Made by a program: the position numbers and the translations under genes
DNA from: an uncultured Chloroflexia bacterium
GTDB lineage: Bacteria; Chloroflexota; Limnocylindria; Limnocylindrales; CSP1-4
DNA length: 64,000 bases
NCBI GenBank assembly: GCA_963713975.1
Contig: OY970218.1
Coordinates: 1,312,001-1,376,000 of the forward strand
Reading direction: 5' to 3'
Shown here: positions 28,253 to 30,404 of the stretch, piece by piece
Numbering within the stretch: the first letter of the stretch is position 1
Layout of the letters: every line of letters begins with the position of its first letter
The notes under the pieces: model-generated
Databases searched by the model: none
The model's input: the letters and a program-made list of their open reading frames with translations, nothing else
What the model was told of the DNA's origin: nothing

Positions 28253-29665
28253 ATGGCGACCGCCGCCCCTTCCGCGACCGGCCGGGTCATCCAGATCACC
28301 GGTCCGGTCGTCGACATCGAATTCCCCGCCGGCGAGCTGCCGGGCATCCTCAACGCCGTCGAAATCCTGCGCGAGGGACACGAGCCCCTCGTGTGCGAGG
28401 TCCAGCAGCACCTGGGCAACAACTGGGTCCGCGCCGTGGCCATGACCACGACCGACGGCCTGGCCCGTGGCACGGAGGTCCGTGACACCGGCGCCGCGAT
28501 CACTGTTCCGGTCGGCGAGGTCACCCTCGGCCGCGTGTTCGACGTCCTCGGTCACCCGATCGACGGCAAGGGTCCCGTGGCGGCCAGCCGCATGCTGCCG
28601 ATCCACCGCTCCGCCCCGGCCTTCGAGGACCAGACCACCAAGGTCGAGGTGTTCGAGACCGGCCTCAAGGTCATCGACCTGGTGTGCCCGTTCCGCAAGG
28701 GCGGCAAGGTCGGGATCTTCGGCGGCGCCGGGGTGGGCAAGACCGTCATCATCCAGGAGCTGATCAACAACGTCGCCAAGGAGCACTCGGGCGTGTCGGT
28801 GTTCGCCGGCGTCGGCGAGCGCTCCCGGGAGGGCAACGACCTGATCGCGGAGATGACGGAGTCCGGCGTCATCGCCAGCACGGCCTTCGTGTTCGGCCAG
28901 ATGAACGAGCCGCCCGGCGCCCGCCAGCGCGTCGGCCTGACCGGCCTGACCATGGCGGAGTACTTCCGCGACGAGGAGGGCCGCGACGTCCTCCTGTTCA
29001 TCGACAACATCTTCCGCTTCACCCAGGCGGGCTCCGAGGTGTCGGCGCTGCTCGGCCGCATGCCGTCCGCCGTGGGCTACCAGCCCAACCTGGCCACGGA
29101 GATGGCGGCCCTCCAGGAGCGGATCACCTCGACCAAGAAGGGCTCCATCACCTCGCTCCAGGCCGTGTACGTCCCGGCGGACGACTACACGGACCCGGCA
29201 CCGGCGACGACCTTCGCCCACCTCGACTCCACGATCCGCCTCGAGCGATCCATCGCGGAGCTGGGCATCTACCCCGCCGTTGACCCGCTGACCTCGACCT
29301 CCCGGGTCCTCGACCCTCTGGTCGTGGGCAACGAGCACTACGATGTCGCCCAGGAGACCAAGCGCGTCCTGCAGCGCTTCCGCGACCTCCAGGACATCAT
29401 CGCCATCCTCGGCATCGACGAGTTGTCCGAGGAGGACAAGGCCACCGTCGCCCGGGCCCGCCGCCTCCAGCGGTTCATGAGCCAGCCGTTCACGGTCGCC
29501 GAGGTCTTCACGGGCCGCACCGGCAAGTATGTGTCGATCCGCGACACCGTGGCCTCGTTCAAGGAGATCCTCGAGGGCAAGGTCGACACGCTGCCCGAGC
29601 AGGCGTTCTTCCTCGCAGGAACGCTCGACGATGTCCGCGAGAACGCGGCAAAGCTGAACCAGTGA
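28253..29665 (+). CDS. atpD: ATP synthase F1 subunit beta
   Basis: [26 protein letters not shown]. Confidence 0.98.
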
Positions 29666-29972
29666 GTCTTACCCACGCTCTCGCCGTGCCGCCCTCGGGC
29701 GCTTCCAGTCACCTGCGGGCGACTGAGAGCGCCCTCCTGCGACCCGGCTGCGCGTGGGTGGATCCCTCCCCCCTCACCGAGATCCGCGTGCTCCGGCCGC
29801 TCGTGCTCGGATCGATGGGGGATGGGGTTGAGTACCGGACCGACCTACGTCGCGCAGCGTTGTCGATTGGCGGGCGCTCTCAGTCCCGCAGGACTGGAAG
29901 CGAGCCGACAGCGACAATGCGCGACGGGCCGTACCGCGAGAGCGGCCGAGAGCGGCCCTCGTTGGGAGTGAG
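29661..29972 (+). other. 306-bp rod-like palindromic insert with a 6-bp flanking direct repeat (AGTGAG), spanned by a 104-aa ORF (29662..29976)
   Basis: Nested inverted repeats across the whole interval (see findings). Confidence 0.75.
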
Positions 29973-29975
29973 CTG

Positions 29976-30404
29976 ATGACCCTCCACCTCGAGATCGTCA
30001 CGCCCGAGCGGCTGGCGTACTCGGACGAGGTCGACATGGTCCTCGTGCCGGGCATCGCCGGCGAGCTGGGGATCCTGCCGCACCACACCCCGCTCGTCGG
30101 CCTCCTGGGCATGGGTGAGCTCAAGATCCGCAAGGGCGGTGACGAGGAGACCTTCGCCATCGTGGGCGGGTTCCTCCAGGTGCGGCCCGACAAGGTCGTG
30201 GTGATGGCCGAGACCGCGGACCTCGCCACGGACATCGATCTCGAGAAGGCGCAGGAGGCCCGTCGTGAGGCGGAGCGCGCGCTGGAGTCCGGGTACCACG
30301 AGGGCGCGGACCTGGCGGCTGCCCGGGCCCAGCTCCAGCAGGCCCTGCTCCGCGTCCGCGTCGCCGAACGCCGCCACCGGGAGGGCCCGCGCTCGCGCGG
30401 ATGA
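29976..30404 (+). CDS. atpC: ATP synthase F1 subunit epsilon
   Basis: LEIVTPER, GELGILPHHTP, GGFLQV. Confidence 0.96.
   Translation: MTLHLEIVTPERLAYSDEVDMVLVPGIAGELGILPHHTPLVGLLGMGELKIRKGGDEETFAIVGGFLQVRPDKVVVMAETADLATDIDLEKAQEARREAERALESGYHEGADLAAARAQLQQALLRVRVAERRHREGPRSRG

Follow-up and report, generated by a model that had tools for sequence, protein, structure and literature searches.

What is the 310-nt, self-complementary stretch that separates atpD from atpC in a GC-rich Chloroflexota bacterium, and how is it tolerated between the two genes? We analyzed this spacer (positions 29666-29975) within a window of 64,000 nt, the whole stretch of DNA under study. The presence of a structured atpD-atpC spacer was confirmed, and the genes, together with a 104-codon ORF linking the stop of atpD with the start of atpC, lay where an earlier note on this DNA had placed them. 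The features of the locus are as follows.

28253..29665, plus strand: atpD (ATP synthase beta), upstream cistron; ORF with stop TGA at 29663-29665
29662..29976, plus strand: bridging (relay) ORF of 104 codons; GTG start in the atpD stop (GTGA), TGA overlapping the atpC ATG (TGATG)
29669..29757, minus strand: left hairpin module H1 (L-type on the mRNA strand); local fold; R2 covariance model 70.2 bits, E 3.3e-13; nhmmer E 4.1e-13
29761..29831, plus strand: central hairpin H2; local-pair fold, C-run 29762-29772 pairing with G-run 29817-29828
29848..29934, plus strand: right hairpin module H3 (R-type), inverted copy of H1; R2 64.7 bits; nhmmer E 1.8e-15
29938..29957, plus strand: tandem 10-nt duplication (GAGAGCGGCC x2) of the module outer-stem 3' strand; small extra hairpin
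29964..29978, plus strand: atpC ribosome-binding region (GGGAG, TGAGCTG, ATG at 29976-29978), conserved as GGAGTGAACTGATG in relatives, short spacers included
29976..30404, plus strand: atpC (ATP synthase epsilon), downstream cistron; Pfam PF02823 5.4e-28 and PF00401 7.3e-09

The C-terminal 120 residues of AtpD were 89-97% identical at the loci of 28 relatives (100% for the window's own copy). A scan of 28200-33700 returned no promoter-like site and no intrinsic terminator in the spacer; no T-run follows the modules, and the sole terminator-like site was distant and on the minus strand (32398-32411). An Rfam scan of 29300-30300 at E values up to 10 yielded chance-level miRNA models at best (22.5 bits against a threshold of 268).

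Fold and hairpin anatomy of the spacer

Analysis of 29661-29976 with RNAfold gave -185.3 kcal/mol, compared with -147.6 +/- 5.5 for dinucleotide shuffles (z = -6.84; 0/100 as low), in line with the earlier description of this interval as self-complementary. The minus strand of the same interval gave z = -6.47. The arm pairs listed previously were recovered: 29676-94 with 29926-44 (84% complementary), 29700-10 with 29892-902 (perfect, 11 nt), 29721-37 with 29869-85 (17 nt, 94%), and further pairs at 29740-54 with 29851-65 and 29764-75 with 29814-25. An excess of G-U mismatches between the arms, which had been read as a sign that the structure matters as RNA, was present in the window (5 G:T vs 1 A:C) and disappeared in the family (108 vs 97 over 21 long spacers); we therefore rejected strand bias as evidence for RNA.

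Examination of the spacer across relatives revealed that the conserved units are three local hairpins, namely two inverted modules of ~86-107 nt and a central hairpin, and not the rod into which this spacer folds in the window. The left module (R2 match G000:C1:1341669-1341757) has an outer stem CGCTCTCGCC...GGCTGCGCG and a tip hairpin at ~29700-29732 with a CTGCGG loop region. The central hairpin has CACCGAG...CTCGG as its inner stem, and a homologous 'type A' center is present in other species. The right module (R2 match G000:C1:1341848-1341934) carries a 26-nt tip motif, GCTCTCAGTCCCGCAGGACTGGAAGC, at 29876-29901 (pattern match, 2 mismatches). Duplications resembling GAGAGCGGCC x2 are also visible in the spacers of other species.

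The module hairpin was strongly supported by the alignment, with 84.2% of cells paired compared with 31-42% when partners were slid. Both sides varied in 22 of its 30 pairs, none of 500 shuffles attained the score observed, and the covariation runs through ~30 base pairs of the outer stems. A U:G asymmetric mismatch beside an unpaired C/A was found in 46/47 modules, and the internal loop is conserved too. Selection is not the only possible source of covariation in close inverted repeats, since template-switch correction of quasi-palindromes in DNA can produce it as well.

Since the two modules are inverted copies of each other, the rod arises as a side effect, and it fell as a conserved structure on two counts. 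Left and right arms diverge independently, being as alike within a locus (identity 0.709) as between loci (0.706; 24 loci), with same-side values of 0.749 (left-left) and 0.753 (right-right) at these loci, and the unrestricted minimum-energy fold was already local in 11 of the 33 long spacers (mostly long-range pairs in 12/33). RNAalifold on whole spacers chose arm-local folds, and folds restricted to local hairpins averaged 17.5 kcal/mol from the unrestricted minimum. Two further candidates were rejected. Concerted evolution of the two arms was discarded on the same-locus and between-locus identities just given. The rod base had been considered as a means of sequestering the ribosome site of atpC; this was dropped as a conserved feature because the fold partner of that site lay near the atpD stop in only 15/38 long spacers.

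Copies, sites and history of the module family

The spacer belongs to a family of palindromic elements that is apparently undescribed, as had been proposed. The literature searched, with subscription journals and supplements outside its range, held no description of the spacer element and no paper pairing Limnocylindr- with palindrom- terms. The family is confined to a Limnocylindrales-like Chloroflexota lineage and occupies few fixed loci per genome. The R2 model matched in 49 of 70 genus genomes, mostly one to seven times each, with two outliers at 10 and 15. Further copies in this genome had been anticipated; none was found by BLAST, by a fuzzy core search allowing up to 4 substitutions or with the nhmmer profile, whose next-best match had an E value of 0.19.

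In relatives the module was also identified in the mreB-PHP and ppdK-ndh spacers and after DUF885 and dnaK genes. Each locus lies directly behind a stop codon, that of atpD, mreB, ppdK, dnaK or the DUF885 gene; L-type modules lie ~4-25 nt past the stops of atpD and ppdK, and likewise a short distance past those of mreB, the DUF885 gene and dnaK. Outside the atp operon the module occupies untranslated 3' regions. Each of the 45 exact 21-mer cores found among 38 public stretches fell in one of three fixed spacers, with no exact core in viral contigs, and these stretches revealed an orientation rule: the upstream-proximal copy, following the upstream stop, is always L-type, and the downstream-proximal copy, preceding the downstream start, is always R-type. 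No doublet flanking a gene emerged from the profile, model and public-data searches.

Signatures of mobility were absent from what we examined. A RAYT (Y1 transposase, PF01797) was detected neither in this genome (0/1, G000) nor in five others (0/5; G017, G027, G035, G077, G008), the genomes being 70-93% complete; the search control was positive in 6/14 named genomes. The hexamer AGTGAG does occur at 29661-66 and 29967-72, where a target duplication had been suspected; it is repeated only in the window and relatives' ends differ. The 3' AGTGAG is part of the ribosome-site region GGAGTGAACTGATG that even short forms conserve, and a target duplication is thus unsupported. Active or recent mobility is likewise unsupported, given the exact cores in three fixed spacers and the ancestry of the long form.

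Rather than being recently inserted, the array is old, vertically inherited and lineage-specific, and its long form is the ancestral state of the genus. Long spacers homologous to it, with ~75-82% identity over the full query, were present in 15 of 36 genus genomes in a first draw, and spacer length ranged from 4 to 529 nt among 57 loci. Junctions in the sister (outgroup) family measured 3-14 nt in 4/4 genomes examined. The short and compact (4-7 nt) junctions are nested inside long-form clades and thus indicate repeated deletions; the tree shows 13 or more changes between the long and short states. Relatives with short or empty junctions, which the earlier note had expected, therefore exist. 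The element was lost in part or in whole many times; four species have junctions of 4-7 nt, and it is thus dispensable. Single-arm atp spacers were also found, with L only in G003, G012 and G025 and R only in G075 and G085. The core was replaced and the hairpin retained in G026, G022, G017 and G035, and elsewhere the 26-nt core is identical between species whose flanks share only ~75-80%.

No public sequencing run contained as many as half of the words sampled (best share 0.15). Contigs at 80% likeness from four runs left 29670-29743 uncovered. Several DNA and RNA contigs joined 29653-29656 to 29975-29988 with 13-25 other letters between, corresponding to compact-junction organisms. One relative's RNA-library contig (X17) covered 29769-29899, with a joint back to 29656 (80% likeness).

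A stop-free frame across the spacer

The frame that ends in TGAtg was preferentially kept free of stops. It was open in 39 of the 52 spacers of at least 40 nt, compared with 6 and 14 for the other two frames, and in 26/38 long spacers compared with 2 and 8. None of 100,000 frame-label permutations matched the latter result, although such P values are overstated because relatives are not independent; among cluster representatives the frame was open in 25/36 long spacers. Stop triplets numbered 20, 57 and 82 by phase, and spacer length was 1 mod 3 at 37/56 loci. A complete relay ORF was present in 29 of the 52 spacers and absent in 23, and 28 of the 29 begin between -3 and +6 nt from the atpD stop. 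In G092 a 529-nt spacer stays open with an in-frame expansion of 42 nt x 6. These comparative data (39/52 open; 37/56 lengths 1 mod 3) back the earlier proposal that a stop-free frame may preserve translational coupling.

Conservation extends only to the lack of stops and not to the relay peptide itself. The ORF matched no Pfam family, and amino-acid identity in frame A, the frame ending in TGAtg, was 0.357 compared with 0.376 and 0.389 in the other frames (78 pairs from 13 intact ORFs). The reading phase of homologous spacer nucleotides differs from one species to another, and the complete ORFs range from 11 to 176 codons. In the mreB-PHP spacers an equivalent frame was stop-free in 8/9 cases; five of these are closely related and it is uncertain where PHP starts, and we therefore did not use this frame as evidence.

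Candidate explanations and known systems

The interpretation offered in the earlier note was supported with respect to an undescribed family, short junctions in relatives and a coupling frame, and found no support with respect to target duplication, additional copies, mobility, G-U bias or the rod. In its place we tentatively favor, as a quite possible reading, a three-hairpin intercistronic RNA cassette that is tolerated through a relay ORF keeping atpD and atpC translationally coupled; from the comparative pattern we infer a role at the RNA level and actual translation of the relay frame. ATP synthase contains three beta subunits and one epsilon subunit per enzyme. The hairpins would act in the mRNA as intercistronic punctuation, the L-type hairpin protecting the 3' end of the upstream segment and the R-type hairpin, once the transcript is cleaved, capping the downstream segment at its 5' end, which would uncouple the mRNA levels of beta and epsilon. 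Because the array lies between coupled cistrons, most lineages would retain a stop-free relay frame. Ribosomes would enter this frame -3 to +6 nt from the atpD stop, read through to its TGAtg end, melt the hairpins on the way and reach the atpC start, the relay product of ~100 amino acids being presumably junk. Within this model, translation through the hairpins and protection by the hairpins act in opposite directions.

A more specific form of this idea, which we regard as doubtful, treats the L/R pair as an operon punctuation cassette that works by RNA alone and is specific to the lineage. If the transcript were cut between the mirrored hairpins, each product would keep one of them as a cap, the upstream mRNA at its 3' end and the downstream mRNA at its 5' end. 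Unprocessed transcripts would remain productive only because translation of ~100 junk codons across the array couples the synthesis of beta and epsilon. Such a device would resemble in function the protein-protected intercistronic processing of chloroplasts, and, if true, it would provide a spacer in bacteria on which coding imposes a single constraint, the lack of a stop codon.

Several explanations compete with the cassette. Unlikely, but a serious contender, is a now immobile, neutral relic of a non-autonomous REPIN/MITE-like element that reached a handful of sites in the genus ancestor and is slowly being deleted, with hairpins kept by quasi-palindrome correction and an open frame left by the purging of insertions that broke coupling. 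Its appeal lies in the inverted doublets of an imperfect palindrome with a GTAG word (GCGTAGCC), as in REP/REPIN sequences (PMC3116915), in singlets and doublets at several sites, in the recurrent loss and in G-U pairs that lack strand bias. The retention of local stems but not of distant arms is also what short-range template switching would predict. However, correction towards a perfect palindrome should erase the conserved U:G mismatch and internal loop, and the relic fits poorly with the failure to find a Y1/RAYT transposase in six genomes, the single locus in this genome, the few orthologous loci per genome, exact cores restricted to three fixed spacers and absent from viral contigs, a target duplication that is not conserved, and the fixed orientation relative to genes. 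We consider it improbable that the module is instead a DNA-level site, a 26-bp and possibly cruciform imperfect palindrome bound by a lineage-specific nucleoid, replication or recombination protein, with its transcribed position incidental. A core identical between species with diverged flanks, low copy number at fixed places, the occurrence of both orientations in one spacer and the lack of RNA-strand bias would all suit such a site, but covariation along the outer stems extends well beyond protein-sized dimensions, some species replaced the core and kept the hairpin, and placement behind stop codons with L before R fits transcripts better.

The two remaining explanations concern the spacer as a whole. 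The alternative put forward in the earlier note, a full-length rod domesticated as an RNase III-type double-stranded target or as a translation switch for epsilon stoichiometry, draws on the rod of -185 kcal/mol that is the minimum-energy fold of the spacer in the window and on the long spacers folding mostly through long-range pairs. It is not supported, since the rod is not a conserved structure, and has little probability: arms are equally alike within and between loci, RNAalifold favors arm-local folds, a third of the minimum-energy folds are local, ribosome-site pairing is inconsistent and single-arm forms persist. Co-transcriptional folding would, moreover, be expected to form H1 first. 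A conserved small protein as the product of the 104-aa ORF is highly improbable; the frame is open, well placed and depleted of stops among relatives, but frame A identity does not exceed that of the other frames, no Pfam family was matched, phases and lengths differ between species, and the module lies in untranslated 3' regions at other loci.

For the cassette, a functional parallel is provided by intercistronic 3' protective stem-loops that set operon stoichiometry, such as the malE-malF REP and the puf operon, as covered in the relevant parts of Dar & Sorek (2018, PMC5927463). The likeness is a very stable hairpin behind the stop of the more abundant upstream product, within an operon and conserved among relatives, and the L-type module does lie directly behind the stop of the upstream cistron. 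The atp spacer differs in having three hairpins, with a mirrored copy ahead of the downstream gene, and a stop-free frame running through them. It offers a natural case of a very stable 300-nt structure between two translationally coupled genes whose products enter an essential enzyme in unequal numbers. Its ~57 species-level variants (4 to 529 nt) form a ready-made mutant series in a poorly studied phylum, suited to tests of hairpin-based differential mRNA decay and of the coupling models, RNA unfolding and reinitiation, that are outlined in part of PMC12548453. The combination of compensated local hairpins, a stop-free frame and a drifting peptide also allows selection for translation as such to be told apart from selection on what is made.

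In its architecture, the array is a variation on intergenic palindromic elements that are already known, rather than a mobile element that has just inserted. REP-type elements were reportedly the subject of work by Nunvar in 2010. REPINs are described, in the pertinent part of Bertels & Rainey (2011, PMC3116915), as inverted REP doublets with a spacer, predicted to form a single long hairpin in ssDNA or mRNA. The atp spacer likewise holds an inverted doublet with a central spacer (one-hairpin fold, z = -6.8), and it shares with REP, BIME and REPIN sequences the extragenic imperfect palindrome, the occurrence of singlets and the GTAG word adjoining the palindrome. In contrast, those elements occupy tens to hundreds of loci per genome with units of ~20-40 nt; the present modules are 86-107 nt long, occur at one to few loci (one in G000), lack a RAYT in 6/6 genomes searched, and sit at orthologous, vertically inherited positions in fixed orientation to the flanking genes. 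A REPIN-like architecture can therefore exist at low copy number, without a transposase and under vertical inheritance.

MIRU elements (Supply 1997, in Delihas 2011, PMC3184786) are characterized, in the portion of the review devoted to them, as direct tandem units of 40-100 bp, ~40-50 per Mycobacterium genome, intercistronic in polycistronic operons and with ORF ends overlapping the adjacent genes. The GTGA and TGATG overlaps in the window are of this kind. G-C-rich internal inverted repeats, again as given in that portion, are a further likeness, as is the in-frame tandem array of G092; this is the only such array, the window having none. Unlike MIRU, the atp spacer is one inverted-doublet array found at a handful of loci in Chloroflexota.

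MITEs such as Correia/CREE and ERIC affect mRNA processing. They occur within operons as hairpin-forming, non-coding insertions of 100-300 nt co-transcribed with their neighbors, as the corresponding passages of Delihas (2011, PMC3184786) state. The atp spacer is similarly a hairpin-forming element between co-oriented operon genes, but no target-site duplication, dispersed copies or parent IS were found for it. Rickettsia palindromic elements are located within protein-coding genes and are translated as a segment of the protein. There too a palindromic insertion is tolerated since the reading frame stays open, whereas the atp spacer uses a separate ORF that bridges two genes.

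The atpD-atpC spacer

The window carries atpA, atpG, atpD, the spacer, atpC, murA, mreB and a PHP-domain gene in this order, all on the plus strand:

28253-29665, plus strand, atpD
310 nt, atpD-atpC spacer (left L-type module, central hairpin, right R-type module)
29976-30404, plus strand, atpC

Analysis of the spacer RNA revealed strong self-complementarity where the earlier note had placed it. In the comparison with dinucleotide shuffles proposed there, the spacer folded at -185.3 kcal/mol compared with -147.6 +/- 5.5 for 100 shuffles (z = -6.84), none of which folded as well; the minus strand gave a nearly equal result (z = -6.47). 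The reported 104-codon frame was also present, from a GTG overlapping the atpD stop to a TGA overlapping the atpC ATG, as was AGTGAG at both ends of the spacer. The module outer-stem 3' strand is tandemly duplicated at 29938-29957 (GAGAGCGGCC twice), and similar duplications (GCGAAAGCGGCC or GGCGAGAGCGGCC twice) were seen in five relatives (G020, G034, G008, G070 and G093).

Three hairpins and the full-length rod

The earlier note read the spacer as one rod paired arm to arm. RNAalifold analysis of 18 long spacers instead chose folds that pair each arm with itself, with double-sided changes in 27 of 47 pairs. Covariation was then measured on an alignment of 47 distinct modules folded as a three-helix hairpin. 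Paired cells made up 84.2%, compared with 31-42% when partners were slid by 1-3 columns; both sides had changed in 22 of 30 pairs, and the covariation score of 0.249 (0.06-0.09 for slid partners) was reached by 0 of 500 shuffles. In four genomes (G026, G022, G017 and G035) the core was swapped but the hairpin kept. Left and right arms at 24 loci shared 0.709 identity when taken from one locus and 0.706 when taken from different loci, compared with 0.749 (left-left) and 0.753 (right-right) for orthologous arms; on these sequences, the two arms of a locus are not kept alike. Folds limited to local pairs lay a mean of 17.5 kcal/mol from the unrestricted minimum, which already consisted of local hairpins in 11 of 33 long spacers. 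Arm mismatches numbered 108 G:T versus 97 A:C, so the G-U bias suggested for the mRNA strand was not borne out. Taken together, the arm-local folds, module covariation and independent arm divergence indicate that the rod is not the conserved structure but a consequence of two inverted module copies flanking a third hairpin.

DNA-level correction of quasi-palindromes can yield covariation, and such correction, rather than selection, could have produced the pattern seen in the modules. The module tip, a 26-nt imperfect palindrome (GATCTCAGTCCCGCAGGACTGGAATC), retains a U:G adjacent to an unpaired C/A in 46 of 47 modules, and the modules likewise preserve an internal loop with GCGTAGCC facing GGCGAGAGC; this mismatch and loop argue against correction as the sole cause.

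The central hairpin occurs as two unrelated sequence types, CACCGAG...CCGGCCGCTCG...CTCGG (L036, L043-L045, L051, L054, L056) versus GCCGTCGCCAGGACGCC...TCTCGGGTCGATG (L031, L032, L034, L037-L040). Both types are flanked by homologous modules, and the array is therefore a mosaic.

Copy number, sites and history of the module family

The earlier note had proposed a search for further copies in this genome (3.62 Mb, one contig, 70.8% G+C). BLAST of the element returned only itself, an approximate-match search with the arm core only the known site, and a profile from 47 related modules only the two arms (E 1.8e-15 and 4.1e-13; next match E 0.19); Rfam held no family for it. The element is thus single-copy here, yet it belongs to a family. 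Among 70 species-level genomes of the genus, the 26-mer tip (up to 3 mismatches) matched in 22, with 1-3 copies each, and a reversed control pattern in none. A covariance model of the hairpin module (R2) found matches in 49 of 70 genomes, usually 1-7 per genome, a tally that takes in both arms and weak opposite-strand echoes. The modules lay at five sites:

Sites of the module
atpD-atpC spacer
mreB-PHP spacer, about 3 kb downstream of the atp site; 25 nt in the window; in relatives 118-238 nt and occupied by singlets or doublets
ppdK-ndh spacer, a few nt (about 4-14) past the ppdK stop; 5 species
behind a DUF885 gene; 3 species
behind dnaK; 1 species

The exact 21-nt core occurred in only 19 stretches among 185,579 species genomes, all titled Chloroflexi, Chloroflexia, Chloroflexota or Candidatus Limnocylindrales MAGs, in 19 metagenome stretches and in no viral contigs. 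All 45 exact-core occurrences were in the atpD-atpC, mreB-PHP and ppdK-ndh spacers, with the upstream-side copy always L-type and the downstream-side copy always R-type. No Y1/RAYT transposase was found in the window's genome or five relatives.

Some sites deserve separate mention. The window's mreB-PHP spacer (32825-32849) contains GCCATCCGGCGGG, which resembles the module flank GGCATCCTCGGCG in the longer spacers of relatives (L061-L063, L073, L075, L077, L087, L091, L095) and, judged by this likeness, may be a deletion remnant. Outside the window but in this genome, at about 3549250-3549395 of G000:C1 (minus strand), the ppdK stop is followed by a pair of ordinary GC-rich hairpins that lack a T-run, where five relatives hold an L-type module. 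Contigs C3, C18 and C20 of a single MAG, G093, each carry the atp cluster with its elements, about 3 kb from a second site, which suggests that the bin combines several strains (stated contamination, 5%).

The spacer was measured at 57 genus loci and ranged from 4 to 529 nt. Long spacers (about 280-365 nt) aligned full-length with the window at about 75-82% identity; in the sister family, whose genomes span 1.0-1.4 Mb, all four genomes examined had a 3-14 nt junction. The 529-nt spacer arose by tandem expansion in G092 and its bridging frame stays open; the 42-nt unit (L145 2015-2268; 6.0 repeats, 99% identity) resembles an in-frame VNTR. Compact junctions, as the earlier note anticipated, exist in four genomes (G090, 4 nt; G064 and G066, 5 nt; G088, 7 nt). 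In a tree of the atpD and atpC flanks (57 ingroup and 4 outgroup rows), every major clade held long forms, with the compact junctions and short forms (40-253 nt) nested beside them. At least 13 long/short changes were needed, in agreement with a smaller tree, and short forms retain element-end pieces, such as the outer-stem words CGCTCTCGCC and GGCGAGAGCGGCC. The tree and the retained pieces together place the origin of the array on the genus stem, followed by many partial or complete deletions; so many losses mark it as dispensable. The proposed 6-bp target duplication found no counterpart: relatives have no conserved duplication, the 5' AGTGAG is peculiar to this genome, and the 3' copy is part of a conserved GGAGTGAACTGATG region before atpC that short forms also possess.

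The array resembles REPINs in architecture (PMC3116915) but differs in its copy number and in having no RAYT in the six genomes searched. It shares a bridging ORF with MIRU, which is a tandem direct repeat, whereas the window element is an inverted doublet (PMC3184786). Unlike a MITE, it showed no target duplication, dispersal or parent IS. A literature search, with subscription journals and supplements outside its scope, returned no description of the element. Its distinguishing features are a low copy number, no associated transposase, vertical inheritance and the stop-free relay frame that overlies it.

The stop-free frame and proposed function

Spacer length was 1 mod 3 at 37 of 56 loci, one locus being excluded for want of an assignable start codon. 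The frame ending in the TGAtg at the atpC start (frame A) was free of internal stops in 39 of 52 spacers of at least 40 nt (other frames, 6 and 14) and in 26 of 38 of at least 200 nt (2 and 8); stop triplets by phase numbered 20/57/82. Random frame re-labelling per locus reached 26 open frames 0 times in 100,000 trials, as it did the 25 of 36 among cluster representatives (88% identity), P values that are too small since relatives are not independent. Many indels distinguish the spacers, and homologous stops occupy either non-A phase across species. The complete relay arrangement was present in 29 of 52 spacers, with the start codon -3 to +6 nt from the atpD stop in 28 of these 29. The encoded peptide shows no conservation: among 13 intact ORFs (78 pairs), identity was 0.357 in frame A compared with 0.376 and 0.389 for the remaining two, and Pfam held no family for the ORF. 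From these sequence comparisons, selection seems to act on the absence of stops, not on a product, although the 23 of 52 spacers lacking the full arrangement count against this.

For function, as distinct from anatomy, history, sites and frame, we infer that the hairpins would serve as intercistronic protective or processing hairpins setting operon stoichiometry. Placement right behind stops, the fixed L-then-R orientation and structural covariation fit this role, which malE-malF REP and other hairpins have (PMC5927463). The relay frame would couple translation of atpD and atpC by passage of ribosomes through the structure, consistent with known coupling by reinitiation at overlapping stop-start signals and by ribosome unwinding of inhibitory structure (PMC12548453).

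Downstream, murA starts 3 nt past the atpC stop (30404-30408), with mreB and the PHP gene next and co-directional, and the atp genes may be co-transcribed with these cell-wall and shape genes. Long ORFs on the minus strand, at 29774-30616 (280 aa) and 29880-31541 (553 aa), run across the spacer, atpC and murA; they were judged spurious, as open frames commonly are at 71% G+C.
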